A stretch of DNA of 64,000 nt. Origin: Calditrichia bacterium (GTDB lineage Bacteria > Calditrichota > Calditrichia > JAJRVZ01). The first letter of the stretch is position 1, and each line of letters starts with the position of its first letter. Below the pieces are notes generated by a model. The model worked only from the letters and a program-made list of their open reading frames with translations, made no database searches and was not told the DNA's origin. Below are positions 29,301-51,632 of this stretch, piece after piece. Made by a program: the position numbers and the translations under genes. Where the stretch lies: the NCBI GenBank assembly GCA_963777955.1, contig CAVZSQ010000027.1, positions 22,603 through 86,602 on the forward strand, given 5' to 3'.

Positions 29301-29338
29301 TTGGAATTTGGAATTTGGTCATTGGAATTTGGAATTTG
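29301..29338. repeat. Tandem heptanucleotide repeat (TTGGAAT/TTGGAATT)n, family member 1.
   Basis: The sequence is ttggaatttggaatttggtcattggaatttggaattt, located between the gltS stop and the DUF799-like gene's 3' end. Confidence 0.7.
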
Positions 29339-29351
29339 CTGCTGTTTTATC

Positions 29352-29991
29352 TCAGGGCAGTGTTTCAAGAGAGTTTTTGATAATTTCAAGCATCTCATCT
29401 TTTAATTCATGCTCGGTCAACCACATCTTAAGAGCTTTTTCACCTGTTTGTCTGCCAAAATCTTCTATCGATTCTTTGGCCGCTTTAGCCGGATCAACCA
29501 GCGTGCCTAATATTGTATCAAAAGTTGATTTACCTTTATCCACTTCCCGCTCATCTTCCCAGATCAGCTGATGGTTAGCGGTATACAATTTAAAATTCAC
29601 TTTTACGATTCTGGTCGAGCTGATACCAATGGTAGAAAACTCACATTCCAGCAGGTTGAGGTAGAGCAGACCATCGGCGGCTAGAATTTGCTCGCATGAC
29701 CGAATCCGGTATAGTAATCAACTGCCCGCCATCGGTGATACCCTCGAGATTTAGCAGTGAGTCGATCAGATCAGGATGTACCAGTTGAAAATCGTCTTCA
29801 TCTTCCAGTTCTTCGTATAATAGATGACGAATGACAATACCACCTTTTACGTCAGTTGTATGATTAATGGTAGGTAAAATCGCTACCCGGCCTGGTTTGA
29901 TATAATCAGGGGCTAAGAATTTAGCCTGTGGCTGACAGGCCCAACTGCAGAACAACCAGAAAGATATTATTAAGCCAGGTTTCATACACAT
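29352..29991 (-). CDS. DUF799-like lipoprotein (partner of CsgG-like proteins), interrupted by at least one frameshift near 29640-29720.
   Basis: ORF 29641..29991 has a signal peptide and lipobox (FCSWAC) followed by KPGRVAILPTINHT... ORF 29352..29600 in another frame continues (LAADGLLYLNLLECEF...KVNFKLYTANHQLIWEDERE...), matching the DUF799 pattern (...LVD.rTGe.LWe...). Confidence 0.55.
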
Positions 29992-30009
29992 ACTATTAAT
30001 TGATCGGTT

Positions 30010-30920
30010 CTATTTGGTCAGGCGGCAAATTAAGGGAAGTTGAAATGTATCCAGATGAACTGCCTGCAACATAGCACCGCGCTCACCAACAAATTCAGAA
30101 ACCACCCCTGCGTCCAGATATTTTTCACGATAACCGATTGGTTGTCCGGTCAAATTAGTAATCAATTCACCTTTTTGGAAAATTTGCAGAGTATCCTGTA
30201 GTTTAAGATTACTTTCCCGTCCGGCATCGATGAATAATTCTCTGCCGTTAACTTTAACCACGTCACAAAGCCAGGGGCGCTTATCCATGAACCGGATAAT
30301 GCGGTTGGTCAGATCAATGACCGCTACGCGGAAGGCATCCATTTCCAGGGATTCATCATACCCACCTTCCTGGCCCATCCCCATAACTTTCTTGAATTCG
30401 CGCTGGGCTGTACCACGGCCGGTTTCAGATAAAATAACTTCACCGCTGCGTAGATCAATGATACGCAGATCAGCCGCCACTTCGGCGTTCTGGACTTTCT
30501 TCTGTGAAAACAGGTCGCTGGAACCGGTTGTGGTCACGGCATAATGGGTAACGGTCCCTGTAATGATATAATCGGCATCCAGAAGTTCCAGTTGTTGTAA
30601 AGTTCCTTCAGTTAGTCCGCTCTGGGACAGCGCTACCTGTTCCACAATCTCATCTATCCGGCTTCGTTCCATCAGAATGAAACGGTTTGTTTGGGATAAT
30701 TCAGTAGATAACACGTCGGTAAGGTGATCGCCCAGGCGCCGCTGACCAAAACGGGTAGCATTCTCGAAGTTAGTGCTACAGCTAGTTTTTTCTTTGCACC
30801 AATATAACCGCTGATCTGATAATTACGTACTACCTGCTGCTGCGGAGTTTTTACCTCCTGATGGGTAGTTGTACAGGCGATCCCCATGATGCAAAATATA
30901 CAAAGCACCACCCTGCTCAT
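30010..30920 (-). CDS. CsgG-family (curli-secretion-channel-like) lipoprotein, interrupted by a frameshift near 30690-30715.
   Basis: ORF 30672..30920 gives a signal peptide and lipobox (GIAC) plus KKKLAVA... ORF 30010..30714 gives the CsgG core (LSTELSQTNRFILMERSRIDEIVEQVALSQSGL...LLDADYIITGTVTHY...). Confidence 0.65.
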
Positions 30921-31133
30921 AAATGCACTCCTTATTATGCCGGAAATTCCGGGAGATACTCCTGCAATCCCCCCGATTATTGCCTATGATCTATAATACA
31001 ATTGAACTAAGGAACTAATGCGATCATGACGCAACTTATTCAGCAATGAAATATTGCTATGCTTAAATCTAATAAAAAATGATCGAGGAGGCGCATATTT
31101 TTTTTATAAATTTCGTCTTATTTTATAAGAGCC

Positions 31134-31724
31134 ATGGTTATATTTGTTGATATGGAATCAGACCTTATAAGCAGATTAAAAGCAGGAGATACGCGTTCAT
31201 TTACCGAACTGGTTGAAGCATATCAGGAACGGGTTATTAATATTTGTTATGCTTTTACTCATAACCGGCAGGATGCGGAGGATGTGGCCCAGGAAGTTTT
31301 TATCGAGATTTTTCAATCAATTCATGATTTCCGCGGCGAGGCTAAATTGGGTACCTGGATAAACCGGATCGCCATTAACCGGTCCTTAGATCTGCTGCGT
31401 AAGAAAAAACGCAAAAAACGGACAGCGCAGTTGCGCAGTCTCTTCGCTCTGGCCGGGTCTGCCGAGGAACCGCCGGCCGAAGCAAATAGTCTGCCCGATT
31501 ACAATGTCGAACAAAAAGAACGGGCACAGATTTTACATAACGCCGTGAAATCGTTGCCGGAAAACCAGGGGATCGCTATCACCTTGAGCAAGTACCAGGG
31601 CTATGATAATTCCGAGATCGCCGAAATCATGAGTATAACACTTTCCGCCGTGGTATCCCTGTTGCACCGGGCCAGAAAAAATCTATATCGCCAATTATAC
31701 CAGTACTATAAAAAAAATATATAG
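31134..31724 (+). CDS. ECF-type RNA polymerase sigma factor.
   Basis: Region 2 (DAEDVAQEVFIEIF, TWINRIAINRSLD) and region 4 (DNSEIAEIMSITLSAVVSLLHRARKNL) are present. The likely start is at 31152 (MESDL...). Confidence 0.8.
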   Translation: MVIFVDMESDLISRLKAGDTRSFTELVEAYQERVINICYAFTHNRQDAEDVAQEVFIEIFQSIHDFRGEAKLGTWINRIAINRSLDLLRKKKRKKRTAQLRSLFALAGSAEEPPAEANSLPDYNVEQKERAQILHNAVKSLPENQGIAITLSKYQGYDNSEIAEIMSITLSAVVSLLHRARKNLYRQLYQYYKKNI

Positions 31725-31782
31725 AGGTGCGCAATTCTTGTTGTACAATTTCGTCTAATAGTAAGTAAATAAGGATGTCGCC

Positions 31783-32121
31783 ATGAACAAAAAAGAAATT
31801 ATCAATCAGGAGGTACAGAAGACACTGGACTGTTTTAAGCAACTGCCAAAACTGCCTGCCGCTCCGTACTTTTATACCCGCCTGCAGGCGAAAATGGATA
31901 GCCGGCACAAGGAAGAAGAAAACCATGGGACTATATTCAGTTCGCGCCTGTGGCGTCCGGCATTAATCGGAATTATAATTGTGTTAAATCTTAGCACGGC
32001 CGTACTGGTTTATTTAAGCAACGGTCAGGGTAAGGATTTTACTGACGATACGCTGACGGTATTAGCCACGGAGTATAACCTGAATCAGGACGACCGTGAC
32101 TTATTTACCGGTAGCAAGTGA
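31783..32121 (+). CDS. Putative membrane-anchored anti-sigma factor (hypothetical, single TM).
   Basis: 112 aa immediately downstream of the ECF sigma gene, with one central TM (ALIGIIIVLNLSTAVLVYL). The assignment rests on position only. Confidence 0.35.
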   Translation: MNKKEIINQEVQKTLDCFKQLPKLPAAPYFYTRLQAKMDSRHKEEENHGTIFSSRLWRPALIGIIIVLNLSTAVLVYLSNGQGKDFTDDTLTVLATEYNLNQDDRDLFTGSK

Positions 32122-32130
32122 GGGAGAGAG

Positions 32131-32698
32131 ATGGATTATTTCAGCAAAAATAAAATTTCGCTGTGGATTATCGTGATCCTGGTATTATTGAATCTGTTCA
32201 CTTTGTCGACGATCTGGTATAACCAATTTCACATTCCGGTCCGGCATCCGCGGGAGGATGTCAGGAACCGGCGCCATGGTGCAAAAGTACTGGAACAGAA
32301 TCTTAACCTGACTGCCGAACAAAGTAAAATATTCGAGGACATCCGCCAGCGGCATTTTACCAGGATGAAGCCATTGCACAGGGAAATATTTTCTATCCGG
32401 CAGGAGTTAATGGACGAAGTGGCTAAAACAGAGCCCGATACGGCACGGATCAGGGAACTGACCAGGCTCATCGGTGAAAAAGAAACCGAACGTGAACGGA
32501 AGTATTGTTGAGCACTTCAGGGAATTGCGATCTGCCTGTACGCCAGAACAGAGAGAAAAATTTGAAATTCTGCTCAGGAAACTGATGGGGCCAGCCCCGG
32601 AAATGTCCGGTCCCCGTCCGGAAAAGCAAGATTTCGGACCCCGTCACGAACCGGGAAATGCTCCCGCTGCGGATGACACTGAGTTTTTCTTCCGGTAA
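32131..32698 (+). CDS. Periplasmic LTXXQ-motif protein (Spy/CpxP-like, PF13801-like), interrupted by a +1 frameshift near 32490-32510.
   Basis: N-terminal TM/signal anchor, then an LTAEQ motif. ORF 32474..32698 continues the family pattern (HFRELRSACTPEQREKFEILLRKLMG) in the next frame. Confidence 0.6.
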
Positions 32699-32771
32699 GA
32701 GATATAAATGAGAAATACTAATCAAGGTCTGATCAGATCGAAATGTAACAAACAAAAATAAAGGAGAAGCT

Positions 32772-33243
32772 ATGAAGCAAACAATCATTTCAACCATTTT
32801 AATCGTGTTCCTGCTGGCAACATTTTGCTGGGCCCAACCGCCGAAACATGAAATGGGCAAAATGGGACCAGGAGTTGATTGATCGACGGCCCTGCTGCGG
32901 CATGGGGTCCCATCAGCAAGGGATGAAGTGTGGAAAGGATATCCCGGATTTAACCGATGAACAGAAGGCACAAATGGAGAAACTGCAGGTTGAACATATG
33001 AAAAGCATGCAACCTTTGCAGAATGAACTGGCTGAAAAACAGGCCCAGTTGCATACGCTGACTACTGCTGCCGAAGTCAGTATGTCACGGATAAATAGTC
33101 TTATCGAAGAAATCGGAAAACTTAAAACCGAAATGATGAAGATACGTGAAAAACATCATCAAGACGTGCGCAAAATACTGAATGAGAAACAACGTCTCTT
33201 TTTCGATAACCAGTCCGGGCCACGACACGGGATGGATGATTAA
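32772..33243 (+). CDS. Second periplasmic LTXXQ-motif (Spy/CpxP-like) protein. Its signal peptide lies in a different frame from the body (+1 frameshift near 32850-32879).
   Basis: A short ORF from 32772 (MKQTIISTILIVFLLATFCWA..., not in the track because it is under 60 aa) encodes a signal peptide. The 32848..33243 body has LTDEQKAQMEKLQVEHMKSMQPLQNELAEKQAQL. Confidence 0.55.
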
Positions 33244-33245
33244 AA

Positions 33246-34952
33246 TTATATCGCCTCCGAGGTGCTTTGCACCTCGGAGATTATATTTATTACCGGCCAG
33301 TAAATTTCAAAGGTCGAACCCTGCCGGGGAGTACTCTCAACCGTAATAAATCCGTTATTCTGCTTCACAATCCCATAAACCATGGATAAACCCAGCCCGG
33401 TCCCTTTTTCTTTAGTAGTAAAAAACGGTTCAAAAATATTATTGAGAATACTTTTGTCGATACCGATACCGGTATCATGGACGGTGAGTAAAATATAACT
33501 GCCTTTTTTGATTTCCGCATAGTTGCCCTGGTACGATTCGTCGACTGTCAGCGGATTGGTTGACATGATTATTAGTTTGGTGGCACTGGGCTCAATATGG
33601 CGTTTGACGGCATCTTTGGCGTTGACAATCAGATTAAGGATGATTTGTTCGAGTTGATTGGGATCAGCTTTTATTTTGGGCAACTCCGGATGCAATTGCA
33701 TTTCCAGAGTGATGTCGGCATCCAGTAAGCGGTACAACATCGTATCTAAATTCGTGATCAGTTGATTGAGATCGACAATTCTGGGTTCAATGATCTGCTT
33801 GCGGCTGAAAGCCAGAATTTGTTGGGTCAGTTTGGTCGCCCTTGTTCCGGCCGCCTGGATGGCCGTCAGGTCTTTTTTTATCTCGGGATCATTTGTCTTA
33901 AGCTTCAGCGAAGCTATTTCACAATGCCCGTTAATTACTGTAAGCAGATTATTGAAATCATGGGCAATGCCGCCGGCCAGTTGCCCCAGCGATTCCATTT
34001 TTTGCGCCTGGATCAGTTGCTCCGTCAGCAGTTTCTTTTCGGTCACATCTCTCATCGAGCCGAATATTTTCAGGGGGATTCCATCGTCGGCCTGTACCAG
34101 AGTTGCATTAATGGACATATAATGTATATCACCCTTTTTATCCAGCATGGGTAGTTCATAATTGCTGATATGGTTATGCTGCAATAATTGGTTCATGAAA
34201 ATTGTATGTTGCTCCGGATTTTGATATAAAGAGATCACTGATCTGTAGATCAATTCGTTCCTGGAATATAACAGTATTTTTTCCAGGGAATAACCGATCT
34301 CTAAAAGGGTGCCATCCGGATTGATTTCAAAATAAATGTCCTGAATATTTTCGAAAATATTCCGGTATTTAATTTCACTCTCTTTGATCCGCCCGATAGT
34401 TTCAAGCATGTTTTCCGTAAGCAGACGAACCATGGTTGCGGTTATCACCACGATCAGGACCCAGATTATAAATTCAGATAATGGATCATCGCCGTAAAAT
34501 TGTATGTAGCCTTTTCTCAGGCGGAAATACTCCACATTGCCTATGGCCACAATGGTGAGAGCAATGAAAAGCAAATAACTTTTTCTGGCCAGCAGCAGAC
34601 TGGCTAAAATAATCATAACCGGAATGGTCAGCGCACTGACGTCATGTATGCCATCTCCTTTATAGACAGAAATGGATATCGCGCACAGTAAACAGATCAG
34701 CGTAATAATACTGGCTAATTGTATTCGGCCCCGGTAGGTCAGGAAGAGCGAAATCAGCACTATCAGGGCAGTGCCGGAAAGGATGTAAAAAGAAATGTAC
34801 CAACTGTTAAGCAGGCAGACGATGATCATTAAAACGCAGGTTATGACCATGAGCACCAGGAAGGTATGCAGTATTAACGCGATGCGATTTTGTTCTTCGT
34901 CAAGTAGATCGGGTCTGGTCAGTATAAATTTTGTCAGCTTGCTAAAATTCAT
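33246..34952 (-). CDS. Membrane-bound PAS sensor histidine kinase.
   Basis: About 5 N-terminal TM segments, a PAS domain, HisKA (HDFNNLLTVINGH), and an HATPase (DTGIGID...GTGLGLSMVYGIV) are present. Confidence 0.85.
   Translation of the reverse strand: MNFSKLTKFILTRPDLLDEEQNRIALILHTFLVLMVITCVLMIIVCLLNSWYISFYILSGTALIVLISLFLTYRGRIQLASIITLICLLCAISISVYKGDGIHDVSALTIPVMIILASLLLARKSYLLFIALTIVAIGNVEYFRLRKGYIQFYGDDPLSEFIIWVLIVVITATMVRLLTENMLETIGRIKESEIKYRNIFENIQDIYFEINPDGTLLEIGYSLEKILLYSRNELIYRSVISLYQNPEQHTIFMNQLLQHNHISNYELPMLDKKGDIHYMSINATLVQADDGIPLKIFGSMRDVTEKKLLTEQLIQAQKMESLGQLAGGIAHDFNNLLTVINGHCEIASLKLKTNDPEIKKDLTAIQAAGTRATKLTQQILAFSRKQIIEPRIVDLNQLITNLDTMLYRLLDADITLEMQLHPELPKIKADPNQLEQIILNLIVNAKDAVKRHIEPSATKLIIMSTNPLTVDESYQGNYAEIKKGSYILLTVHDTGIGIDKSILNNIFEPFFTTKEKGTGLGLSMVYGIVKQNNGFITVESTPRQGSTFEIYWPVINIISEVQSTSEAI
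33250..33285. repeat. Palindromic hairpin element (CTCCGAGGTG-ctttg-CACCTCGGAG), second copy of the REP-like element at 15230-15260. It probably serves as a bidirectional terminator.
   Basis: A 10-bp perfect stem between convergent genes (LTXXQ gene ends 33243, histidine kinase ends 33246). Confidence 0.5.
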
Positions 34953-35035
34953 GCAAATGAACGGTCTTACACTAGGTTTTTCTTTAGACGATTATGTCAA
35001 TATAATCGGCTGATTGAACAACAAAGTTAATTGTT

Positions 35036-36718
35036 TTAACTCTGCGTAGCGCGCTCCAGACGCTTCATAATCGAAAAAATGAACGCGGCCGATAGCAAAC
35101 AACAAATCACAAAAATTGACCATAATACCCATAAAGAGACGGTCCCCCATAAATACCCGCCTAGCAGCAGCAGGTAATTACCTACGCCGGTAGCAGCAAA
35201 CCAACCTCCCTGCATTCTGCCCTTATATTTTGGCGGTGCTACCTTTGCTACAAAAGAAATGCCCATAGGACTGAGAAACAGTTCAGCAATGGTCAGAATA
35301 AAATATGTGGAAATCAACCAGTAAGGAGAAACCAGCATATCGGCAGGAGCTACCTGTCCTGCTAATTCAGCAGGGCTGGCTAATCCTTGCGAACCGATTG
35401 CCAATAAACAAAATGCCCCGCCGGCTGTCAACATTCCCATACCGATTTTACGGGGAGCTGACGGCTCAATCCCTTTCCGATTCAGATAACCAAACAAGGC
35501 CACAACTAATGGGGTCAGGGCCACGATGAAGAAAGGATTAAAATGTTGAAATTTCTGTGGTGTAAACGGATTGACCTCCCCATATGTATTAAAACGCAGA
35601 TAGGTCAGTAAAGCAAAAACCACGGCGAAAATTGCCCCGGCAAAACGCACCGTGGTCGTACTTTTTCTTCTGATTACAAAATAGATTCCAACCAGGGTCA
35701 AGAGAATAGGCAGTAAAGCGAACAGATCAAACCAGATGTTGGTCAACTTTCCGACGCTTGGTTGCGTGTAATCACGGGCAAAATAGGTCATGGTTAATCC
35801 GCTCTGGTGAAAAGACATCCAGAAGAAAATAACCACGAAAAAGACCAGACCAAGCGCGAGGACTCGCTGTTTGATTTGTTCAGCGGTCAGTTCTTCGACT
35901 ATTATAGTAGTGTTTTTTTGCTGGTCTTGCTGATGAGCCATAAAATCCGCATGCTGGTAATATTTCCGGAATCCCCAGAAAATGAGCATCGAAATGATCA
36001 AACTGATGCAGGCCACGCCAAAGCCGTAATGATATGATTTACTCAGCACATTAATATAATTCTCCGAAAATGAAGCCAGGGTTGCCAGGGTCAGCGAGGA
36101 ATCCTGAGCCTGAGCAATGGACAGGTAAGTACTGGTATCGGACAAATTATTTTTCAGGAACTGGTTTGCCAGGGCAGGAATCCGGTTATCATAGAAATAA
36201 TGTGCCTTGGCAAGAATCCAGTTATTTATTACTTCAGCGGCGGTCGGCGCGAACATGGCGCCAATATTAATGCCCATATAAAAAATGCTGAAAGCACGAT
36301 CCCGGTTGGGGCTGTATTGCGGATCATCGTACATCTTACCGACCAGTGCCTGCAGATTTCCTTTAAATAGTCCGGTTCCCAATGCTATCACACCCAGAGC
36401 CGTAAAAACCAGCAGTAGCCCGGAATTCATAGCTGTCGGAGTGGCCAATAACAGATAACCAAGAAACATCACAACCAGACCAATTTTAATAGTCCGGCCA
36501 TAACCAAGAAAGCGATCGGCAATATATCCGCCAAGCAAGGGTAAAAAATAGACGCAGCCCATAAAAATACCGTACACCCAGCCAACGGTTGCTGCAGTCA
36601 TACCATATTTAGTCTGCATAAACAGCACAAAAATGGCAATCATAGTGTAAAATCCGAAACGTTCGCCCATATTCGCAAAGAAAGCAACAAACAATCCCCT
36701 GGGATGATCCTTGAACAT
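35036..36718 (-). CDS. Proton-dependent oligopeptide transporter (POT/PTR2 family, DtpT-like).
   Basis: 560 aa with 12-14 TM. The PTR2 signature region is present (GERFGFYTM...FMGCVYFLPLLGGYIADRFLG). Confidence 0.85.
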   Translation of the reverse strand: MFKDHPRGLFVAFFANMGERFGFYTMIAIFVLFMQTKYGMTAATVGWVYGIFMGCVYFLPLLGGYIADRFLGYGRTIKIGLVVMFLGYLLLATPTAMNSGLLLVFTALGVIALGTGLFKGNLQALVGKMYDDPQYSPNRDRAFSIFYMGINIGAMFAPTAAEVINNWILAKAHYFYDNRIPALANQFLKNNLSDTSTYLSIAQAQDSSLTLATLASFSENYINVLSKSYHYGFGVACISLIISMLIFWGFRKYYQHADFMAHQQDQQKNTTIIVEELTAEQIKQRVLALGLVFFVVIFFWMSFHQSGLTMTYFARDYTQPSVGKLTNIWFDLFALLPILLTLVGIYFVIRRKSTTTVRFAGAIFAVVFALLTYLRFNTYGEVNPFTPQKFQHFNPFFIVALTPLVVALFGYLNRKGIEPSAPRKIGMGMLTAGGAFCLLAIGSQGLASPAELAGQVAPADMLVSPYWLISTYFILTIAELFLSPMGISFVAKVAPPKYKGRMQGGWFAATGVGNYLLLLGGYLWGTVSLWVLWSIFVICCLLSAAFIFSIMKRLERATQS

Positions 36719-36734
36719 GGCAAAACCTCCTGTA

Positions 36735-42237: not shown

Positions 42238-43812
42238 ATGCAGACAAAATTCAAAAAAAAACAGGTGGACTCCACGCGCGATTCTGATTCGGTGATTTTA
42301 AATCAGAACCTGTTTCATTCCGTCCTGGATAGCCTGCTCGAAGGGGTGATTGTAGCCGATAACGAAGGGAAATTCCTTTATTTCAATCCGGTGGCTAAAA
42401 AAATTCTCGGTATTGGTTTGAAAGATGTGCGTCCCGAAGAATGGACTGCTGCATACGGCTGCTACCTTCCCGACCAGATTACCCCTTATCCGCCTGGTGA
42501 TCTGCCGCTGGCCCGTGCTATCCGCGGGCAGGAGGTAACCGATGAAGTCATGTTTATTAAAAATGAACGACGGCCGCAGGGGATTTTTATCAGCATCACT
42601 GGCGGTCCGCTGAAGAGTGTAAATCCGGATATCGAGGGCGGGATTGTGATCATCCGCGATATCAGCGGACTTATTGAATCGGAACAGACACTGCGCCGGA
42701 CAGAAACAACTTTAAGAAAACTGGTCAGTGCCGTGGAACAGACAGCAGATGGTGTAATCATCACCGATACGCAGGGGATTATTGAATATGTTAATCCGGC
42801 CTTTGAAAATTTAACCGGCTATTTCCGGGCAGAGGTATACGGCCAGACGCCCAGGATACTCCGATCCGGTTTACAGGATGAGGCATTTTACGATAATTTG
42901 TGGGATATAATCCTGAGTGGTACACCTTTTAAAGATACCATTGTCAACAAAAAGAAGAATGGGGAACTTATCTGGTGCCAGCAGACCATTACACCAATGA
43001 AAGATCAGGATGGGCAGGTCACAAATTTTGTTTCGGTAATCAAGGATATCACCGAACTGAAAAAGAAGCACGAACAGGATCTGCAATTGCGGCTGGCCCG
43101 TGAATTACAGCAGCGGTTTTATCAGCAGAAAATATCCGCAGCCGGTTTTGATATTGCCGGAGCAGCCTTTCCGGCCGTGGAAACCGGCGGTGATTATTTC
43201 GATTTTATCAAAACCCATGATGGTTACATCTGGCTGGTGGTTGCCGATGTCTGCGGGCATGGCATCGGTTCGGCCCTGATCATGGCTGGAGTGCGGGCTT
43301 ATTTGCATGCCTTTGCCAGGGTCGAATCGGATCCGGGTATTGTACTGGGATGGCTAAACCATGAATTAAAGTCGCATCTGAATGACCGGCAGTATGTGAC
43401 TATGATGCTGGTTCGCCTGCATCCCGGGAGAAAAACAATTGAATTTGCCGGGGCCGGTCATGTACCTGCTTACCTGCTGAATCATGCTGCCGAGATAAGT
43501 TGTATCCTGTACAGCAAGGGTATCCCCCTGGGAATTGATACCCGCGAGATTTATGTTAAGAGTGAGCCTATTCCTCTGCAAGGACAAGATAATCTGATTT
43601 TGATCAGCGACGGGATTGTGGAAGCTCATGCTCTGGACAAATCAGAATTCGGTTATACCCGGGTTCTGGAGATCGTGCGATCGCTGCAACAGGAGAGTGC
43701 CAGAGAAACTCTGGAAGGGCTTTATCAGGCGGTCCGCACCTTCAGGCAGAACCAGCCGCAGGAGGATGATATCACAGCAATTATTTGCAAAGTGAACAGT
43801 CAGGATAGATAA
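42238..43812 (+). CDS. PAS-domain-containing PP2C/SpoIIE-family serine phosphatase.
   Basis: Two to three PAS repeats, then a PP2C domain (GGDYFDF...WLVVADVCGHGIGSALIMAG...LILISDGIVEA). Confidence 0.85.
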   Translation: MQTKFKKKQVDSTRDSDSVILNQNLFHSVLDSLLEGVIVADNEGKFLYFNPVAKKILGIGLKDVRPEEWTAAYGCYLPDQITPYPPGDLPLARAIRGQEVTDEVMFIKNERRPQGIFISITGGPLKSVNPDIEGGIVIIRDISGLIESEQTLRRTETTLRKLVSAVEQTADGVIITDTQGIIEYVNPAFENLTGYFRAEVYGQTPRILRSGLQDEAFYDNLWDIILSGTPFKDTIVNKKKNGELIWCQQTITPMKDQDGQVTNFVSVIKDITELKKKHEQDLQLRLARELQQRFYQQKISAAGFDIAGAAFPAVETGGDYFDFIKTHDGYIWLVVADVCGHGIGSALIMAGVRAYLHAFARVESDPGIVLGWLNHELKSHLNDRQYVTMMLVRLHPGRKTIEFAGAGHVPAYLLNHAAEISCILYSKGIPLGIDTREIYVKSEPIPLQGQDNLILISDGIVEAHALDKSEFGYTRVLEIVRSLQQESARETLEGLYQAVRTFRQNQPQEDDITAIICKVNSQDR

Positions 43813-43978
43813 TAGGCACAAAGGCACTAAGGTACTAAGGAACTCAGGTACTATGAATTCCTGACTATTGGTATGAGACCATTTATGTGTTTTATTCTTC
43901 CTGCATATCTGTTATATTTCATAAAAATCTTTATATGACTTCTGCAGGGCAGGGCCGTTGAAATTATTCAGAGGAAAA

Positions 43979-44200: not shown

Positions 44201-44259
44201 CAATTATCGGCGGTCATCAAATCCTCGCATCTATTCTTGAATCAACAAAAGGGGGTAAT

Positions 44260-45474: not shown

Positions 45475-45567
45475 TTTATATTTCGTATCGCAGTTCATAG
45501 TAGAGATATTCGCGGTTCAAGGATTTAATTAAGCAGGTTGAAACCGTTATTTTGCTGAGGAGAGAAG

Positions 45568-47260
45568 ATGAGAAAGTTTTTCGTTTTAGCCCTGTCAAGT
45601 TTGTTATACATTTTTATTTTTTCCTCGTGTACAGTTAATCAGTCCTATACGCTTTCGGAGGATGGATTGCAAAAATTTATTTTTGACTATGAATCCAGGG
45701 TAGAACCTTTAACCACCCTGCGCAGCCAGGCTGAATGGAATGCTTATACTACAGGTAAGGATGAATACTTTGCTGAATTGACCCGGATGAGTCTGCTGCT
45801 TGATTCATTACACCAGAACCAGGAACATTTCCGTTACCTGCAAAAATTGCAGCAGCAGGATGTGGTGAAGACGCCTCTGCTGAAACGGCAACTGGATCTG
45901 TTATATAAAGAATATCTGAGCCGGCAGATCGATCCGCTGCTGAATAAACAGGAGACCGAACTTTCCACTAAACTTGAAAATACCTATGCCAATTACCGCA
46001 CGGCCTGGGAGGGTGGTACTGCTTATTCCGATAATCAGGTCGCCCAGGTTCTGAAAAGTGAAAAGGATTCTGCGGTCCGGGAAAAAATATGGCGGGCGCA
46101 GAAAAATATAGGAGGGCAGGTAGCCGGAGATCTGGTCGAAGTGGCCGGTCTGCGTAATCGCCTTGCCAACGAACTGGGTTATAAAAACTATTTTTATATG
46201 AAGATGGATCTGACTGAAATGGATGCGGAGCAGGTGGAAAAAATATTTAATGAATTGTACACTTTAACTGCAGAACCATACCGGCAGGTACATGACCAGA
46301 TCGAAGAAGTATTCAGCAAACGCTATGGGATCAGGCGGGAGCAACTGCGTCCCTGGCATTATGAAGATCTGTTCGCCCAGGAAGCCCCGGCGATTTACCA
46401 GATTAATCTTGACAAGTATTATAGTAAAGCCGATATCCCGGCTCTGGCTCAGAAGTATTTCGGTTCATTAAATATGCCGGTCGAAGATATTTTACAGCGC
46501 AGTGATCTGTTTGAGCGTGCGGGAAAAAATCAACACGCTTTTTCCTTTAATATCGACCGTAAGCAGGATATCCGTATTCTGTGTAATATTGTACCGGATA
46601 TGCGCTGGATGGAGACGGTATTGCATGAATTGGGACATGCGAATTATGACAAGTATATCGATCAGACTTTACCGTTCCTGCTGCGGGAACCAGCCCATTC
46701 TTTTACGACCGAGGGAATTGCCAATTTGTTTGGAGGATTTTGCCTCCGATGCCGCCTGGATGGCGCAGGCCTTGAATATTTCACCTGCGCAAGTTGAAAA
46801 AATCCGGGAAACCACGCAGGCCAGCGCCCGTTTGTCCAAACTGATTTTCGCCCGCTGGAGTATGGTGATCTTCAATTTTGAGAAATCCCTTTATACCGAT
46901 CCCGGACAGAATCTTGACAGTCTGTGGTGGAATCTGGTGGAGAAATACCAGTTGGTCAGGCGTCCCGATAATCCGCAGGGGAATGAGTGGGCTGCCAAGA
47001 TCCACATTGCCACCTATCCGGTCTATTACCACAATTATCAGTTGGGTGAAATATTTGCGGCGCAGGTGCTGAATACGATCAAGGAAAAATACGGGGTTCA
47101 GGATTTCTGGAATCAACCGGAGGTTGGCACTTATTTAAAGACGCAGGTATTTGCTGCGGGTAAAAAATTGCCCTGGCCGGAGTTTGTGGAACAGGCCTGC
47201 GGCGGCGAGCCGCTGACGGCGAAATACTTTGTGCAGAGGTACGTACAGGACAATGAGTAA
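45568..47260 (+). CDS. M2-family (ACE-like peptidyl-dipeptidase) zinc metallopeptidase lipoprotein, interrupted by a +1 frameshift near 46760-46770.
   Basis: Signal peptide with lipobox (FSSC), then HELGH zinc motif (HELGHANYD). ORF 46502..47260 continues the M2 C-terminal domain (...HIATYPVYYHNYQLGEIFAAQ...) in the next frame. Confidence 0.7.
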
Positions 47261-47283
47261 AATTCCAAATTCCAAATTCCAAA
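47261..47283. repeat. Tandem heptanucleotide repeat (AATTCCA)n, family member 2.
   Basis: The sequence is aattccaaattccaaattccaaa, starting 1 nt after the M2 peptidase stop. Confidence 0.7.
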
Positions 47284-47290
47284 AAAAGAT

Positions 47291-47320
47291 ATGCTATAGC
47301 ACGTGTACCCAGGAATACCT
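47291..47320. repeat. ATGCTATAGCACG...ACCCAGG motif (palindromic core TGCTATAGCA), copy 1.
   Basis: A 10-bp perfect palindrome with conserved flank. Copies 2 and 3 are at 47702-47731 (same orientation) and 48110-48140 (inverted). Confidence 0.55.
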
Positions 47321-47329
47321 GCAACCGGA

Positions 47330-47610
47330 TTACTTTTTGACAGTCACGGTCATCGGTTGAACGGAAATTATTCCCGTGAACACTCCTATCACCAGGTCGA
47401 CAAATTCGAACGACGTGGTGACTTCATAATCCTTCGCGTCACCCGCCATTTGTTTTGAGTCTACATTGTTCAGCGGAACAAGCCCAAACAGTATTTACCA
47501 CTGTCTTTCCGAGGTTGTGGTGCTACCCTGGGCCCCATTTCCAACCGTATGTTTCATCGCATAGCAACCCGCCATCAAATTAATCCTGGTAGATTTCAGA
47601 TTGAATCAAC
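47330..47610 (-). pseudogene. Degenerate inverted copy of the Bor-like lipoprotein gene (about 95% nucleotide identity over about 240 bp to 47860-48097).
   Basis: The reverse complement of 47333-47575 aligns base for base with 47860-48097. This copy has an in-frame TAA (CAGTGGTAAATAC versus CAGTGGTATATAT), a 13-nt deletion in the signal-peptide region, and no ATG. Confidence 0.55.
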
Positions 47611-47701
47611 AGAAATTTATCAATATCTGATCCTCTCAGAAAAAATGGTCATTTTCAAATTAATTTTTTCGCCACCTAATCAAAATATTTTTCAACTAGA
47701 C

Positions 47702-47731
47702 TATGCTATAGCACGATCAGGATACCCAGGG
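47702..47731. repeat. ATGCTATAGCACG...ACCCAGG motif, copy 2, in the divergent region between the two Bor-like copies.
   Basis: tatgctatagcacgatcaggatacccagggatt, compared with copy 1 atgctatagcacgtgtacccaggaatacc. Confidence 0.55.
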
Positions 47732-47803
47732 ATTATCAGAGGGCTCGAATCGTCTATTGGTTCTATAAAATTTTCAAATTGATGATGGAAGGGAGGTGAG
47801 ACT

Positions 47804-48097
47804 ATGAGTAGAAAGATTACCAGTATCTTTTTAATTTGTTCTTTTCTCTTAATGGCGGGTTGTTATGCCATGAAACATACGGTTGGAAATGGGGCCCAGG
47901 GCAGCACCACAACCTCGGAAAGACAGTGGTATATATTGTTCGGGCTTGTTCCGCTGAACAATGTAGACTCAAAGCAAATGGCGGGTGACGCGAAGGATTA
48001 TGAAGTCACCACGTCGTTCGAATTTGTCGACCTGGTGATAGGGGTGTTCACTGGAATAATTTCCGTTCAACCGATGACCGTCACTGTCAAAAAGTAA
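47804..48097 (+). CDS. Bor/Iss-family-like small outer-membrane lipoprotein.
   Basis: 97 aa with an SD (gggaggtgag) and lipobox LMAGC. The C-terminal pattern (...FGLVP...VDSKQMAGDAKDYEVTTSFEFVDLVIGVFTGIIS...) resembles the lambda Bor lipoprotein family. Confidence 0.55.
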   Translation: MSRKITSIFLICSFLLMAGCYAMKHTVGNGAQGSTTTSERQWYILFGLVPLNNVDSKQMAGDAKDYEVTTSFEFVDLVIGVFTGIISVQPMTVTVKK

Positions 48098-48109
48098 TTG
48101 AATTGCGGG

Positions 48110-48140
48110 TGATTCCCGGGATATACCCGTGCTATAGCAT
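48110..48140. repeat. ATGCTATAGCACG motif, copy 3 (inverted orientation), downstream of the intact Bor-like gene.
   Basis: cccgggatatacccgtgctatagcat is the reverse complement of atgctatagcacgggtatatcccggg. Confidence 0.5.
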
Positions 48141-48308
48141 ATCTGTCTTGTATAAATTTTAAAATTATTTCGTATCGATATTGATTTTGTTGTAATCCGT
48201 CATTCGTGCTCCAGGCGACTTGCGGGTCACGTTCAACCCGATTCTCTACTGGTGGCCGTTTTTATTTTGATAAGGATTAAACTGATATATCAAACTTTGT
48301 GATTTTTT

Positions 48309-48734
48309 ATGGGAGGTGCTATCATGAAATGGTGGTGTTTATTATTGATAACTATTTTATTCATGTCTGTTGGATGTGAACGTAAAATTACAAAGATTGA
48401 AAAGGAGACGTCAATTTCAGGTGCAGATTTTCGAGAATATACTAAAAAAGGATTTCTTTTCACTCCATATTCGTACCCTGGGAAATATGAACCTGTGGGT
48501 TTAGTTATATTTTCTATTAGATCAGGTGCTGAATATAAATCAGCGACTTCAGGAAAGAAATCAAAGGATAATAGTTACCGTCCCCATAGCTCAGAATATT
48601 CTCCTGAATATAAAATCTGGTTTTATGATTATGTCGAGATGTCTCAGGTCATAGAATTTGCTTATAAAAAGGCAATCGAAATGGGTGCTAATGCTCTATG
48701 TGATTTCAAAATTTTTTCAAAACACTGTCTATGA
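48309..48734 (+). CDS. Hypothetical lipoprotein.
   Basis: Signal peptide with lipobox (MSVGC). No recognisable family. Confidence 0.4.
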   Translation: MGGAIMKWWCLLLITILFMSVGCERKITKIEKETSISGADFREYTKKGFLFTPYSYPGKYEPVGLVIFSIRSGAEYKSATSGKKSKDNSYRPHSSEYSPEYKIWFYDYVEMSQVIEFAYKKAIEMGANALCDFKIFSKHCL

Positions 48735-49216
48735 CATTTACAGGAAGGGGCTTACAGCCTCTGGGCGGCAAAATGAAAAGGATAAAGCAGGATTTAAATA
48801 ACGGTCTCCAGCAGGGAATCGAAAACCGCAAATTGCAGTGTATTCCTGGTTTGCTGATTGTCCTTACTCATACAACCGGTAAAAATATTATAACACAAAG
48901 CAGAGTTGAGGATTAATTAAAAATCTGACCACGGTAGAATTTATATCCCATGATGTCTCACTAAAATAAATTATGGATATTCCTGGCTGTTTTAAAAGTA
49001 TAAAATATTGTATTAATTTAAAATAGCGATGCAAATAACCAGGTATAAAATTGAATATACTAAATACAAAAATGATAGCAATAAAAAAATCGACCTGCGT
49101 TAAATTTATTTTTGATTAAATTGAATTAGTCTGATATTATGAATCAAATTATAAATGAACACCGTCAAATTAATTTGATTTTTTGACGTATAAAATTTAA
49201 ATTAAAGTTTTGAAAT

Positions 49217-49288
49217 TCCGGCGTGACTCAATGGTAGAGCGGGTGACTGTTAATCACTAGGTTGTAGGTTCGAGTCCTGCCGCCGGAG
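49217..49288 (+). tRNA. tRNA-Asn (anticodon GTT).
   Basis: Cloverleaf with a 7-bp acceptor stem (TCCGGCG/CGCCGGA), D-arm ...AATGGTAGAG, anticodon loop CT-GTT-AA, T-loop GGTTCGAGTCC, and discriminator G. A hairpin plus T-run terminator follows. Confidence 0.8.
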
Positions 49289-49308
49289 CAAAGTAAAAAT
49301 AGGAACTT

Positions 49309-49336
49309 AGGCCGTCCGGCAGGATGGCCTTTTTTA
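49309..49336 (+). terminator. Rho-independent terminator after tRNA-Asn.
   Basis: AGGCCGTCC-ggca-GGATGGCCT followed by TTTTTT. Confidence 0.65.
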
Positions 49337-49427
49337 TTGGAATTAGAGAAAATTGTAGTAAATTGAAATGTTCGGGAAATCATTCGGGAATACGTAAACT
49401 AATTATTAATCAAAAGGAGAAACACAA

Positions 49428-49541
49428 TGGGAGACAAAGGCGGTAAAAAGGATAAGAACAAGAGTCAAAAACAGCACAAAAGCAAACAGGATCAAAAGGA
49501 AAAAATGAAACAGGACAGGCTGCCGAAAAGAACCCAGTAAC
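49428..49541 (+). CDS. Small, highly basic Lys-rich protein (37 aa), hypothetical.
   Basis: Read directly from the sequence; it is below the ORF-track length cutoff. A strong SD (aaaaggaga) lies 7 nt upstream of the ATG. The translation is MGDKGGKKDKNKSQKQHKSKQDQKEKMKQDRLPKRTQ. Confidence 0.35.
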
Positions 49542-49617
49542 AGCAATCTGACTTAAATATGTTTACTTGTATGAGCCCGACCCGGACTCGGTAAAATCGA
49601 GTAAATATTATCTATTT

Positions 49618-49836
49618 TTATTTTTTAAGTAATTCACGCATCTGTCTGAGAATAAGCGCTATTACAAAAATTAACAGAATGGCTGCGAATTCCAGAAGTC
49701 TTCCTGCTTCATAGGGCAGCTGAGAGAGTTGCCAGCCAAATAGACCTAAAATTTTGTCCAAAAATGCCAGAAATAATAGTAAAAAAGCACATACAAAAAA
49801 AATACGGGAAACAACACTGCTGAGTTTATCAAACAT
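49618..49836 (-). CDS. Small membrane protein (2 TM), hypothetical.
   Basis: 72 aa hydrophobic ORF. Confidence 0.35.
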   Translation of the reverse strand: MFDKLSSVVSRIFFVCAFLLLFLAFLDKILGLFGWQLSQLPYEAGRLLEFAAILLIFVIALILRQMRELLKK

Positions 49837-49855
49837 ATTTGTTCTCCTTCAGTAA

Positions 49856-50149
49856 TTAATTTCTTGGAATAGCTATCGCGTTTGCAGCGAGATTATAATG
49901 ATGGAAATCAAGACGTACCATTCTAATAGTACCCTGATTATCAAGAAACCATAACTGGGCCCAGCCGGGGTGTGCGCCATTTGCAGTTACTGCGAATAAT
50001 GGACCGTATTCAGATGGTATCCCTTTCAGATCAGTGATTTTAATGTTCTCTAATTGGGTATTTGATGCAGTTTCTCCGGGAATACGCTCGCAGGTGCTGA
50101 TTAAGAAAATGAGTAAAACCAGGAGAGTTATAATAAAAACACGATTCAT
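49856..50149 (-). CDS. Hypothetical lipoprotein.
   Basis: Signal peptide with lipobox (LISTC). The start is probably the Met at 50149. Confidence 0.4.
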   Translation of the reverse strand: MNRVFIITLLVLLIFLISTCERIPGETASNTQLENIKITDLKGIPSEYGPLFAVTANGAHPGWAQLWFLDNQGTIRMVRLDFHHYNLAANAIAIPRN

Positions 50150-50482
50150 TGGCTGGAGTAACACTTTGCACCTCCTTTTTTATGCTTGTGGTAGTTAAGA
50201 ATTCCGGGTTGAATTATTAATTATTTAAAATTATATGTTTTATATAAATAAAATTCGAAATAGCAACCGTGCTAAAAATCGTAAAGATATGTCAGTTATT
50301 AATGGAAAATCTTTTAAAGAATACAATAATTGATAATCTTTAGCAATGAAAAGTAATATTTTATCCAGCACTCCCTGATCTGAATCCGCTGCTTCTTTTC
50401 GAAAATATTTTAATAGTGGTTTAAAAGTTACGATTTTCTGCCGATAATTGGTTTAACTTAGAGAGCCAAAAACGGGGGTTTC

Positions 50483-51055
50483 ATGAAACGAGTTTTTTCA
50501 TTTATTATAATGGGTTTTATTTACAGCCAGGTAGTGTTCGGTCAACAACAGAATGTGGCCGTGATTAATTTTGAAGCGCTGGGATTATCACAGGTCGAAG
50601 GAGCCGCCCTGACCGACCGGTTCCGGTCGGAATTATTTAAAACCGGGAAATTCACGGTGCTGGAACGCGATAAAATGGATGAGATCCTGGTCGAACAGGG
50701 GCTGCAGCAGACAGGCTGTACTTCCAGCGAGTGCCTGGTCGAAATGGGAAAATTGCTCAATGTCCATCAGATCTTCGCCGGTTCAGTATCTCAATTTGGA
50801 AATATATTTTCCGTTACCGTCCGCTTAGTCGATATTCAAACCGGGAAAATTCAGGATTCAAATTCCCAGGACTTCAGTTCCGGAAAAGAAAAATTATTGA
50901 CCGATGGAATGAAGGCGGTTGCCTTATATTTTGCCGGAATAAAAACCGTGATCGCAGCTCCAAGAGTTGAACAAGCGGTGACTACCAGCAGTGATACCAG
51001 TGCCCTTAAACGTGAAATGCTTAACAAGATGTCGGCCAGAAGAAGAACAAAATAG
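50483..51055 (+). CDS. Periplasmic protein with a CsgG/LpoB-like fold (hypothetical).
   Basis: Signal peptide, then the pattern VAVINFEALG...LTDRFRSELFKTGKFTVLERDKMDEILVEQGLQQTG...GKLLNV..IFAGSVSQFG...VTVRLVDIQTGKI, characteristic of CsgG/LpoB/TolB-N-like domains. Confidence 0.4.
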   Translation: MKRVFSFIIMGFIYSQVVFGQQQNVAVINFEALGLSQVEGAALTDRFRSELFKTGKFTVLERDKMDEILVEQGLQQTGCTSSECLVEMGKLLNVHQIFAGSVSQFGNIFSVTVRLVDIQTGKIQDSNSQDFSSGKEKLLTDGMKAVALYFAGIKTVIAAPRVEQAVTTSSDTSALKREMLNKMSARRRTK

Positions 51056-51060
51056 ATTAT

Positions 51061-51120
51061 CAAATTCCAAAATCCAAATTCCAAAATCTAAAAGCTGAAT
51101 ATATTAAGGCCAATTCCAAT
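51061..51120. repeat. Tandem heptanucleotide repeat (AAATTCC/AAAATCC)n, family member 3.
   Basis: caaattccaaaatccaaattccaaaatc ... ccaattccaat, starting 5 nt after the stop at 51055. Confidence 0.7.
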
Positions 51121-51223
51121 TATTTTTTAATAATTTTGAAATTAATAACCCCGTTATATTCGTTCAATATAAATAAATGTGTGATTTTTCTGATAATGAC
51201 AATATAATTTTAAGGAATGGATC

Positions 51224-51490
51224 ATGCCAAAATTCCATATAGAAGTTCCGCATGAGGCGGATGAAACCCTCTGCAAGCAGGCCATCAAAATATTCCTGCA
51301 GAGTGGTTCGCATTTCCTGACCCATGCTGAATGGGGTTGCCTGGATGGTGATCATAATGCCTGGATCATCGCCGAAGTGGATTCGAAGGAAGAAGCCCGG
51401 GGAATTCTTCCTCCGGCTTACCGGCACCAGGCTAAAATAGTCCAGATTACCAGGTTTACTGCAGCAGATATTGCTGAACAGCACCAGTAA
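51224..51490 (+). CDS. Hypothetical small protein.
   Basis: 88 aa ORF with an SD (aaggaatgg). No recognisable family. Confidence 0.35.
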   Translation: MPKFHIEVPHEADETLCKQAIKIFLQSGSHFLTHAEWGCLDGDHNAWIIAEVDSKEEARGILPPAYRHQAKIVQITRFTAADIAEQHQ

Positions 51491-51494
51491 AGTA

Positions 51495-51632
51495 AAATCC
51501 AAATTCCAATGACCAAATTCCAAATTCCAAGAATCAAATTCCAAACAAAAAATTCCAGATTCCAAAATCCAAATTCCAAACAAATTGAGAAATTTGGTAA
51601 TTTGGAATTTGGTAATTGGTATTTGGCATTTT
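51495..51632. repeat. Long heptanucleotide repeat array. Forward units (AAATTCC) are followed by inverted units (TTTGGAA/TTTGGTA), giving an imperfect long hairpin. Family member 4.
   Basis: aaatccaaattccaatgaccaaattccaaattccaagaatcaaattccaaac...attccagattccaaaatccaaattccaaac...aatttggtaatttggaatttggtaattggtatttgg. Confidence 0.75.

Follow-up and report, generated by a model that had tools for sequence, protein, structure and literature searches.

Tandem arrays of seven-nucleotide units next to stop codons in a Calditrichota-like genome, and their counterparts in other bacterial phyla

Why should short runs of a seven-nucleotide unit lie directly behind the stop codons of one gene after another, and do they do anything there? 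The question is raised by a 64,000-nucleotide stretch of a Calditrichia bacterium genome (GenBank assembly GCA_963777955.1, contig CAVZSQ010000027.1, positions 22,603 to 86,602), hereafter the window, in which a preliminary description made from the letters alone had reported a dispersed family of tandem heptanucleotide repeats at the 3' ends of genes. Some bacterial genomes have been known since 1990 to carry heptanucleotide tandem repeats, a curiosity still without explanation, and the arrays of the window are an example of this described class rather than a new kind of element. The account that we favor, and hold to be probable though well short of certain, is that they are slippage-generated repeats tolerated at gene 3' ends, those of the hairpin type probably serving as a terminator or insulator.

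Tandem Repeats Finder (TRF) and a lag-7 self-match scan place period-7 arrays, one of them actually of period 8, at nine intergenic loci of the window. All are non-coding, and copy numbers range from 2.7 to 12.4 per array (TRF). They are listed below, the two arms of the composite locus on separate lines.

13040-13074, plus strand: heptamer array of AAAGGNN, about 5 units, 103 nt past the stop of the open reading frame (ORF) 11770-12936
19887-19911, plus strand: array of TAATTGG/TAAATAG, 3.6 units, 2 nt past the TAA of the Transgly_assoc gene 19639-19884
21525-21555, minus strand: array of AATTACT/AATTACC, 4.4 units, which on the minus strand reads TAATTAG/TAATTGG; 10 nt past the stop of the patatin/Omp85 gene 21566-23824 (minus strand)
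29301-29338, minus strand: array of TTGGAAT, 5.4 units, one of them broken, which on the minus strand reads AAATTCC; 13 nt from the stop of an 82-aa ORF, 29352-29600 (minus strand), and 70 nt from that of the sodium/glutamate (Glt) symporter gene 27998-29230 (plus strand)
43814-43853, plus strand: octamer array of AGGCACTA, 5 units, 1 nt past the stop of the PAS-SpoIIE phosphatase gene 42238-43812
47260-47283, plus strand: (AAATTCC)3.4, exact, 100% match by TRF, its first A being the last base of the TAA stop (47258-47260) of an M3-like peptidase frame
51061-51093, plus strand: array of AAATTCC/AAAATCC, 4.7 units, 5 nt past the TAG of the CsgG-like lipoprotein gene 50483-51055
51494-51584, plus strand: forward arm of a composite array, about 12 units (12.4 copies by TRF) of AAATTCC with the variants AAAATCC, AATGACC and AGATTCC, beginning 3 nt past the TAA of a conserved 88-aa gene, 51224-51490
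51591-51631, plus strand: inverted arm of the same composite, about 6 units of AATTTGG/TAATTGG (TRF)
58228-58252, plus strand: array of TAATTAC, 3.6 units, between the argC-like gene 57243-58211, whose stop is 16 nt away, and the aspartokinase/homoserine dehydrogenase gene, whose start follows after 46 nt

A dispersed, intergenic family of period-7 tandem arrays adjoining stop codons, as first proposed, is therefore present. The arrays originally listed are real and their positions hold to within a few bases, except that the array beginning at 51061 stops at 51093 and not at 51120; the AAAGGNN array at 13040-13074 and the octamer array at 43814-43853 had been missed. The latter is placed like the other arrays but has a period of 8, and hence the family cannot be called strictly heptameric, as it had been. 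The TTACTAA/TTGGTAA arrays had rightly been seen as kin of the main family, because AATTTGG and TAATTGG units occur together in the inverted arm at 51591-51631 and because one relative of the window (L271, discussed below) has a hairpin of ATTACCA/TAATTGG units at the orthologous site. All three reading frames are closed in 19887-19911, since each unit contains a TAA, and convergent ORFs flank two arrays, those at 21525 and 29301. Between the Glt symporter stop and the TTGGAAT array there is also a direct repeat, GAGTTCCACG…GGAGTTCCACGGAG, at 29243-29276, which is not heptameric.

The prevalence of period 7 within the window exceeds chance. At one score threshold, a lag-p self-match scan of the window returned three arrays, all of period 7; periods 4-6 and 8-12 yielded none. 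The AAATTCC doublet AAATTCCAAATTCC, allowing at most 2 mismatches, has 16 matches where 1.9 are expected, a number reached by none of 100 shuffles, and all 16 fall in the four loci at 29301, 47260, 51061 and 51494. Doublets of TAATTRS number 13 in the window, against an expectation of 0.4.

The placement of the arrays right after stops is unusually consistent in the window. From the facing stop to the array, the distances at the nine loci are 103, 2, 10, 13, 1, -1, 5, 3 and 16 nt. Two of these values call for caution: that of 13 nt at 29301 is measured from an 82-aa ORF lacking a Pfam match, and for the 10 nt at 21525 the left edge of the gap was taken from a small ORF, 21321-21457, that is unverified. 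At eight of the nine loci the array thus begins within 16 nt of the facing stop, as the preliminary description would have it, an outcome seen in 0 of 200,000 trials in which the arrays were re-placed at random inside their own intergenic regions (P < 5e-6); the array at 13040-13074 is the only one that does not abut a stop. The distance from an array to the next start codon is 46 to >400 nt. Many of the flanking genes are genuine as judged by Pfam, including those for the Glt symporter, the M3/M32-like peptidase, the CsgG-like lipoprotein, aspartate-semialdehyde dehydrogenase (asd), the patatin/Omp85 protein, the argC-like protein, the PAS-SpoIIE phosphatase and Transgly_assoc. The 88-aa ORF at 51224-51490, for its part, has 848 homologues at E<=1e-5. 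This ORF, lying between two arrays, represents a widespread family of small proteins of about 92 aa without a Pfam domain, whose matches include Thermodesulfobacteriota, Thiotrichales and Bacteroidales.

The last array of the cluster differs in architecture, since its forward and inverted units stand side by side at 51494-51631. Its arms at 51494-51526 and 51599-51631 are 88% complementary over 33 nt, and several other registers pair too. RNA spanning 51488-51645 folds at -39.5 kcal/mol, whereas shuffled versions average -21.8 (z = -5.2, and -5.2 to -5.9 across folding runs), which bears out the early reading of this locus as a forward/inverted pair with a long hairpin. The same forward-then-inverted architecture is found in a Bacteroidales metagenome-assembled genome (MAG) and an Aminicenantes MAG, and it outnumbers the reverse order 8:2 among the collected loci and the window, the window's own pair being one of the 8. 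The UUUU of the 51494-51631 hairpin belongs to the stem. In the consensus scan, canonical terminators or promoters at the arrays did not exceed chance, and a search of the whole window against Rfam 15 at gathering score returned tRNA-Asn only, so that the arrays match no RNA family. A terminator role, one of those suggested at the outset, is consequently plausible for the hairpin-type array only, because arrays running in one direction have nothing to pair with and are not followed by a canonical terminator. The surrounding interval, 48000-52000, is low in G+C (0.375 versus about 0.45 elsewhere), with few long ORFs between 48734 and 49856; it carries the tRNA-Asn gene at 49217-49288, followed at 49309-49330 by the clearest canonical intrinsic terminator of the scanned region.

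How stable are such arrays over evolutionary time? Among named organisms, the asd matches closest to the window come from Calditrichaceae and Ignavibacteria MAGs, and the host is Calditrichota-like. A public contig of 108 kb encodes an identical asd protein. In the relative L121, asd is 84% identical and synteny extends from the peptidase to the arg and thr genes; there is no array past its peptidase stop or its argC stop (the orthologue of 58228-58252 being absent), and (GGAATTT)3 with degenerate heptamers lies upstream of its asd. Relatives with an asd 70-76% identical have no array upstream of the gene, and a TTGGTCA-type array is found in the relative L125. More informative are closer relatives, whose 88-aa protein is 86-94% identical to that of the window. 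Past the 88-aa stop, the array of L268 starts identically to that of the window (TAAAGTAAAATCCAAATTCCAATGACCA) but its forward units are fewer, a loop of about 70 nt is inserted, and its inverted arm is longer; the forward arm of L270 is shorter by about 28 nt, or four units; and L271 has a forward and inverted pair of ATTACCA/TAATTGG at the orthologous site, the predominant unit having changed. In the inverted arm, the gaps in the alignments of the window with L268 or L270 measure 7 and 14 nt. Unit number accordingly differs between relatives by 7, 14 and about 28 nt. The array downstream of the CsgG-like gene (51061-51093) recurs in L270 at about the same extent, with substitutions, and is absent from L268 and L271. 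The hairpin after the 88-aa gene is retained in L268 (z -4.8) and, with a different unit, in L271 (z -5.2); altogether it is kept in three of the four relatives fetched and is weak in one of them.

These comparisons bear on two of the alternatives. The first is that the arrays are assembly artefacts, collapsed or invented from low-complexity sequence, for which one might cite the indel errors that the window's assembly probably contains. Relative to intact orthologues in L121, L270 and L271, three biosynthetic genes are frame-shifted: the M3 peptidase (45568-47260) near 46776, thrB (52791-53761) near 53165, and the bifunctional aspartokinase/homoserine dehydrogenase (58298-60785) near 60004. 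Close to the first two breaks, at most a few tens of nt away, there are runs of A. All three are probably assembly indel errors rather than pseudogenes, and the assembly therefore probably contains indel errors, by which exact unit counts in the window could also be slightly off. Independent assemblies from other samples (L268, L269, L270) nevertheless share arrays with identical first units at the same sites, arrays occur in finished isolate genomes as well, and at 24-140 nt they are below typical read length. We regard an artefact as extremely unlikely, and the preliminary description's own reservation on this point can be set aside. The second is that they are contingency tracts that switch a neighboring gene by changes in unit number, a function that had been suggested for slippage-prone arrays. 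Unit number does change in 7-nt steps between relatives, and 7 is not a multiple of three, so an array lying in frame would shift that frame. Yet the arrays follow stops, with none in a reading frame or between a -35 and a -10; the flanking genes are housekeeping (asd, argC, peptidase, symporter) rather than of surface or restriction function; and the CsgG-downstream array is about the same length in two genomes whose 88-aa proteins are 88% identical. Position, after stops or upstream of a -35, largely refutes a phase-variable locus, and there is only the faintest likelihood of such a function.

The region between the composite array and asd raises a different possibility. It contains one further feature, read from the sequence:

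51638-51666, plus strand: promoter-like TTGCAT-17 nt-TAACTT, not a repeat

About 6 nt separate the end of the inverted arm from the -35-like TTGCAT, and the upstream block with TTGCAT-17 nt-TAACTT is conserved in the window, L121, L268, L270 and L271, which makes it a putative asd promoter. Within the larger asd-upstream block (51636-51750 in the window, 9886-10000 in L121), a leader of about 80 nt that is also conserved (…AACTTCAAAACTTTATTTGTC…) comes after TTGCAT-17-TAACTT, and the whole could be the promoter and regulatory leader of an asd-thrB-thrC operon, although it has no Rfam match. The arrays might then act at the level of DNA, as sites for a nucleoid-associated protein or for structure formation, or as A/T-rich UP-like elements tuning promoters. 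The proximity of the inverted arm to the promoter-like block is in keeping with this, as is the GGAATTT array of L121, which is similarly placed without a forward arm, and heptamer repeats are reported in a Nostoc preprint to modulate NtcA- and LexA-dependent promoter activity (10.1101/2022.06.06.494920). Most arrays of the window, on the other hand, follow stops and lie far from the downstream start (e.g., 43814 and 47260), and L271 retains the asd promoter block with no array. The composition of arrays elsewhere offers a further argument for DNA-level action and is considered next.

When examining other organisms, it is evident that the unit is not confined to one lineage. We assembled two collections, to which the figures that follow refer as far as the matches listed go: a genome set of at least 120 stretches with (AAATTCC)3 in species-representative genomes (840 kb), and a metagenome set of at least 120 contigs with the same motif (727 kb). 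The stretches of the genome set span more than ten phyla, and the suggestion that the family might be lineage-specific accordingly fails. Carriers include Bacteroidota (many of them Flavobacterium), Acidobacteriota, Patescibacteria, Calditrichota, Nostocales, Desulfobacterales, Verrucomicrobiota, Chloroflexia, Planctomycetota, Gammaproteobacteria and others, with Flavobacterium sp. LPB0248 (NZ_CP058246), Flavobacterium caeni and Maribacter halichondriae (NZ_CP107030) among the finished genomes. Period 7 again predominates, with 245 arrays against 0-24 at other periods of 4-12 in the genome set and 215 against 1-22 at other periods of 5-10 in the metagenome set. The unit itself does not. The genome set has about 75 different heptamer units, and AAATTCC makes up only 3 of the 80 arrays located more than 300 nt from the selecting match. 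Among the other units, AATT is present in 17 of 74 (49 of 121 arrays), whereas other palindromic tetramers occur in 0-4 units. The number of units implies that the shared feature is the period, and perhaps an A/T-rich AATT core, rather than one transferable sequence. It is this recurrence of AATT that also speaks for action at the level of DNA, since AATT cores every 7 bp would place three units in two helical turns. A 7-bp spacing is out of helix phase for coherent bending, though, and a binding protein is so far only hypothetical, so that on balance we give DNA-level action little credence.

The breadth of distribution suggests yet another origin, a MITE- or REP-like mobile hairpin element that inserts at gene 3' ends and has spread horizontally. 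Besides the spread of (AAATTCC)3 over more than ten phyla (at least 120 stretches), one could point to the fact that horizontal transfer has been considered for the TAACTGA heptamer repeats (PMC4679880), and to a 25-nt irregular stretch, caagcaccaaattccaaacaaattc, common to the composite AAATTCC hairpins of the Bacteroidales MAG (L038 1021-1150) and the Aminicenantes MAG (L109 4491-4660), which may reflect either convergence or transfer. Against such an element, the arrays have no conserved internal sequence, target-site duplication or defined ends, and their arms vary by whole units; BLAST of the window against 120 genome loci found nothing in common beyond the arrays; and AAATTCC is a minor unit among 74 others. 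Viral contigs (IMG/VR) are also poor in the motif, (AAATTCC)3 occurring in 5 stretches versus 17 and 12 for two composition-matched control heptamers. We therefore consider a mobile element very unlikely, and the same viral and unselected-array counts led us to reject AAATTCC as a privileged unit. By comparison, (TAACTGA)3 is present in 107 IMG/VR viral stretches, several contigs having multiple sets, which may bear on the spread of TAACTGA. Two other observations concern the organization of arrays elsewhere. A CCAAGCA unit adjoins AAATTCC in at least 8 loci from several phyla, and in a Flavobacteriaceae MAG chromosome (OY970287.1; L040 7000-8000) at least 8 tandem copies of a higher-order repeat, each about 120 bp long, are built of heptamer sub-arrays (TTTGGGA/TTTGGAA xN, GACGAGC x3 and CCAAGAG/CCAAGGG/TCAAGAG).

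Is adjacency to stop codons as widespread as the arrays? Crude ORF-based calls had placed 54 of 124 arrays in other genomes within coding sequence, but most of these calls are artefactual, given that AAATTCC closes none of the six frames and ORFs continue across the arrays. Only the stops of ORFs of at least 120 aa were therefore used, and arrays were compared with random placement in the non-ORF space of the same loci. Array starts lie within 5 nt of a stop in 14% of cases versus 3% at random in the genome set and in 20% versus 6% in the metagenome set, a 3-5x enrichment in two independent collections. The association with gene 3' ends that had been suggested for the window is thereby borne out more widely, but it is general only partly, as roughly three in four arrays elsewhere have no stop directly beside them and the window, with eight of nine, is extreme. 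The junctions TGA-aattccaaattcc and TAA-aaattccaaattcc recur across unrelated phyla. Eight of 10 upstream ORFs tested are full-length known genes, among them those for RecJ, a beta-lactamase-family protein, MreB, a subtilase, Era, SepF, an amidohydrolase and a Na/Ca exchanger.

Such a position would place the arrays in the 3'-untranslated RNA, and a strand preference seemed at first to assign them a function there. On the mRNA, the sequence is AAAUUCC at all four AAATTCC-type loci of the window (29301, 47260, 51061 and, at 51494, the forward arm). The genome set has this sense orientation in 16 of the arrays lying no more than 10 nt from a stop and the opposite one in 3, and in its co-directional gaps 8 of 17 sense arrays lie within 9 nt of the stop versus 0 of 18 antisense arrays. 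In the metagenome set, the preference was not replicated (16:16), and other units have no C-rich bias (7 versus 13). For both reasons we do not rely on the rule that AAAUUCC is the sense strand at stops; it has been dropped as lineage-dependent at best. One frequent metagenome class has a frame that ends on a TAG made by a variant unit (GGAAT-TAG-GAATTT...GGAATGCG). Loci of this (GGAATTT)n subtype (L321, L325, L329, L341, L352, L353, L369, L372, L382 and L385) close the frame on TAG or TAA within the first units and end in GGAATGCG or GGAATTCG; their contig names suggest mostly soil samples, and they may belong to one lineage.

The failed strand rule matters for the proposal that the arrays are RNA-level loading platforms in the 3'-untranslated region: as naked RNA exposed once the ribosome has left, the repeated 7-nt units would recruit a protein that binds single strands and covers about 7 nt, and its binding would control termination or mRNA decay. 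Cold-shock proteins (Csp), S1 and CsrA-like proteins, all listed as candidate binders of the TAACTGA heptamer repeats (PMC4679880), would qualify, as would Rho for the G-free AAAUUCC strand. Array starts 0-6 nt past genuine stops in many phyla would suit such a platform, as would the sense bias of the genome set and the window and the fact that AAAUUCC RNA is free of G and unstructured. The even split in the metagenome contigs is hard to reconcile with it, given that a common class there reads GGAAUUU after or overlapping the stop, as is the lack of C-rich bias in other units; moreover, 75 units are too diverse for one sequence-specific binder, and several arrays are absent in close relatives. 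Rho in particular is a difficult candidate, as cyanobacteria also carry such arrays and, to our knowledge, lack Rho. A loading platform of this kind is unlikely, though it deserves some weight.

We are left with slippage and tolerance at gene 3' ends. The arrays, their period, their placement, their turnover in 7-nt steps between relatives, and the fold and its persistence are matters of observation, around which the following scenario may be built. Strand slippage at replication would create the arrays and alter their length, 7 nt at a time; the period remains constant while the sequence of the unit drifts and turns over within the array. They presumably accumulate right after stops because the DNA there carries no protein code, promoter or ribosome-binding information, for which reason an array may reach a stop, or even share bases with it, without cost. 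They are probably co-transcribed as 3'-untranslated RNA. Single-direction arrays (47260, 51061, 58228 and others) are probably near-neutral. Where forward and inverted arrays stand side by side, as at 51494-51631, the transcript or DNA strand is predicted to fold into an A/U-rich hairpin of 35-45 bp, which probably serves as the 3'-end structure of the transcript, separating the 88-aa gene, as a terminator or insulator, from the putative asd promoter 6 nt downstream.

Several considerations weigh against this reading. From neutral tolerance alone one would not expect array starts in long gaps to concentrate so sharply 0-5 nt past the stop: the array at 43814 lies in a gap of 447 nt and that at 47260 in one of 543 nt, yet both are at the stop, and something thus seeds or favors arrays at the stop itself. 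The slippage account also leaves the choice of period 7 unexplained. As regards the hairpin, it is weak in L270 (z -1.6), its stem is rich in A/U and G·U pairs without the G+C-rich base of a canonical intrinsic terminator, and a consensus terminator scan called none at the arrays, the composite hairpin included. In L121, furthermore, only the inverted arm persists, beside the asd promoter, which fits a promoter-upstream role equally well. The first two of these difficulties would be eased if arrays starting at stops were a selected 3'-end signal shared across phyla rather than neutral by-products of slippage, the naked RNA or displaced DNA being coated in register by a near-universal protein that binds single strands and covers 7 nt. 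Candidates for coating the strand behind the terminating ribosome are a cold-shock-domain protein and, for G-free units containing C, Rho; the coating would set transcription termination or mRNA decay, explaining both period 7 and the 0-5-nt peak, with the hairpin pairs as a bidirectional version. We judge a selected signal of this sort to be improbable.

Several implications follow for how such arrays are regarded. What is new here is the Calditrichota-like host lineage, AAATTCC as a dominant unit (its doublet was not found printed in the literature searched), and the far wider distribution of one unit, in more than ten phyla and always among many other units, which favors a shared mutational or structural cause over transfer of a single sequence. 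Equally new is the positional rule, the 3-5x enrichment of starts within 5 nt of stops, which models of origin must explain; any real novelty would lie in the period of 7 and in seeding at the stop codon itself. On a practical level, arrays make spurious ORFs with KFQIPNS- and GIWNLEF-type peptides, and gene callers and assemblers err there. The ORF 51164-51652 (minus strand) is such an artefact, as the preliminary description had surmised for translated arrays: its translation runs ...WNLEFGHWNLDF... (also ...FDSWNLEFGHWNLDF...), and it overlaps the real 88-aa gene on the opposite strand. If hairpin-type arrays are terminators, they would constitute a lineage-flexible way to build terminators from simple repeats.

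It remains to compare the arrays with known classes of repeats. With REP/BIME elements, intergenic hairpin repeats and intrinsic terminators, they share a location after stops, often between convergent genes, and, at 51494-51631, a long hairpin. They differ from REP/BIME in having no conserved palindromic unit of 20-40 nt, the arms being made of 7-nt units that vary by whole units, in the A/T-rich stem without a G+C-rich base, and in the inability of single-direction arrays to pair; inverted pairing results only from juxtaposed opposite arrays at one locus, and the REP/BIME assignment is rejected. The canonical form of an intrinsic terminator is likewise rejected for the A/U-rich stem, at which the consensus scan called nothing, although a terminator-like function may still apply. 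CRISPR arrays consist of repeats of about 24-48 nt with unique spacers, whereas the units here are contiguous 7-mers without spacers. The initial opinion that the arrays are neither CRISPR nor REP/BIME is therefore upheld.

Closer parallels are found among heptanucleotide repeats. The short tandemly repeated repetitive (STRR) heptamers of heterocystous cyanobacteria were reportedly described by Mazel et al. in 1990. STRRs are tandem heptanucleotides at many non-coding sites, often gene ends, with several units per genome and hypervariability between strains, their canonical units being CCCCAGT, TTGGTCA and CAACAGT. The window resembles them in that heptamers stand in tandem at numerous scattered non-coding positions (nine loci within its 64 kb), and single units equal to STRR2 (TTGGTCA) or one base off occur as CCAATGA at 51509-51515 and TTGGTAA in the inverted arm. 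Such TTGGTCA-like units are isolated within arrays, however, the main units being AAATTCC and TAATTNN, and the host is Calditrichota-like rather than a cyanobacterium.

The best-documented relatives are the TAACTGA repeats that MacGregor described in 2015 in marine Beggiatoaceae, Cyanobacteria and some Bacteroidetes (PMC4679880), a description that precludes novelty of the present arrays as a class. TAACTGA repeats form many intergenic sets, mixed with other heptamers, and their function was not established; strain differences are "mostly indels in 7 nt increments", close relatives may be without repeats, and some sets lie after or between stop codons (PMC4679880). The window matches this picture in its tandem 7-nt units at dispersed intergenic sites, with distant phyla as carriers, TAACTGA being mostly in 2-12 copies; in its mixed units per region, presence or absence in close relatives and 7-nt indels; and in having some sets directly after or overlapping stops or between convergent genes. 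There are also clear distinctions. The window's units are AAATTCC or TAATTNN, and it contains no TAACTGA doublets even with up to 2 mismatches. TAACTGA closes all three frames, whereas AAATTCC has no stop codon in any frame. In BOGUAY, the reference genome for TAACTGA, the sets lie mostly just upstream of starts, unlike the eight of nine loci of the window just downstream of stops, and the BOGUAY pattern, a few nt upstream of a start in forward orientation, is absent from the window, given the distances to the next start reported above. Finally, BOGUAY has one indirect repeat in 170 sets, whereas forward/inverted hairpin pairs recur among the arrays collected here.

The arrays also belong to a broader statistical class, the long simple sequence repeats (LSSRs) of 5-11-nt units. 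According to the summary of Mrazek et al. 2007 given in PMC4679880, heptanucleotides are the commonest of these, and slippage was proposed for them, with 7 nt as a possible contact length of the polymerase. As the class is portrayed there, the likeness lies in over-long tandem iteration of a 5-11-bp unit, with heptamers the commonest, and in a phylogenetically scattered distribution; the arrays show the corresponding properties, with head-to-tail units, an excess over composition and whole-unit changes in length, the last seen as length polymorphism of the slip-strand type between the window and L268 or L270. In one respect they go beyond that class, for LSSR5-11 as summarized in PMC4679880 is defined on purely statistical grounds and sets no rule of position, with stop adjacency absent from the summary, whereas the arrays of the window and, in part, those of other phyla start preferentially at stop codons.

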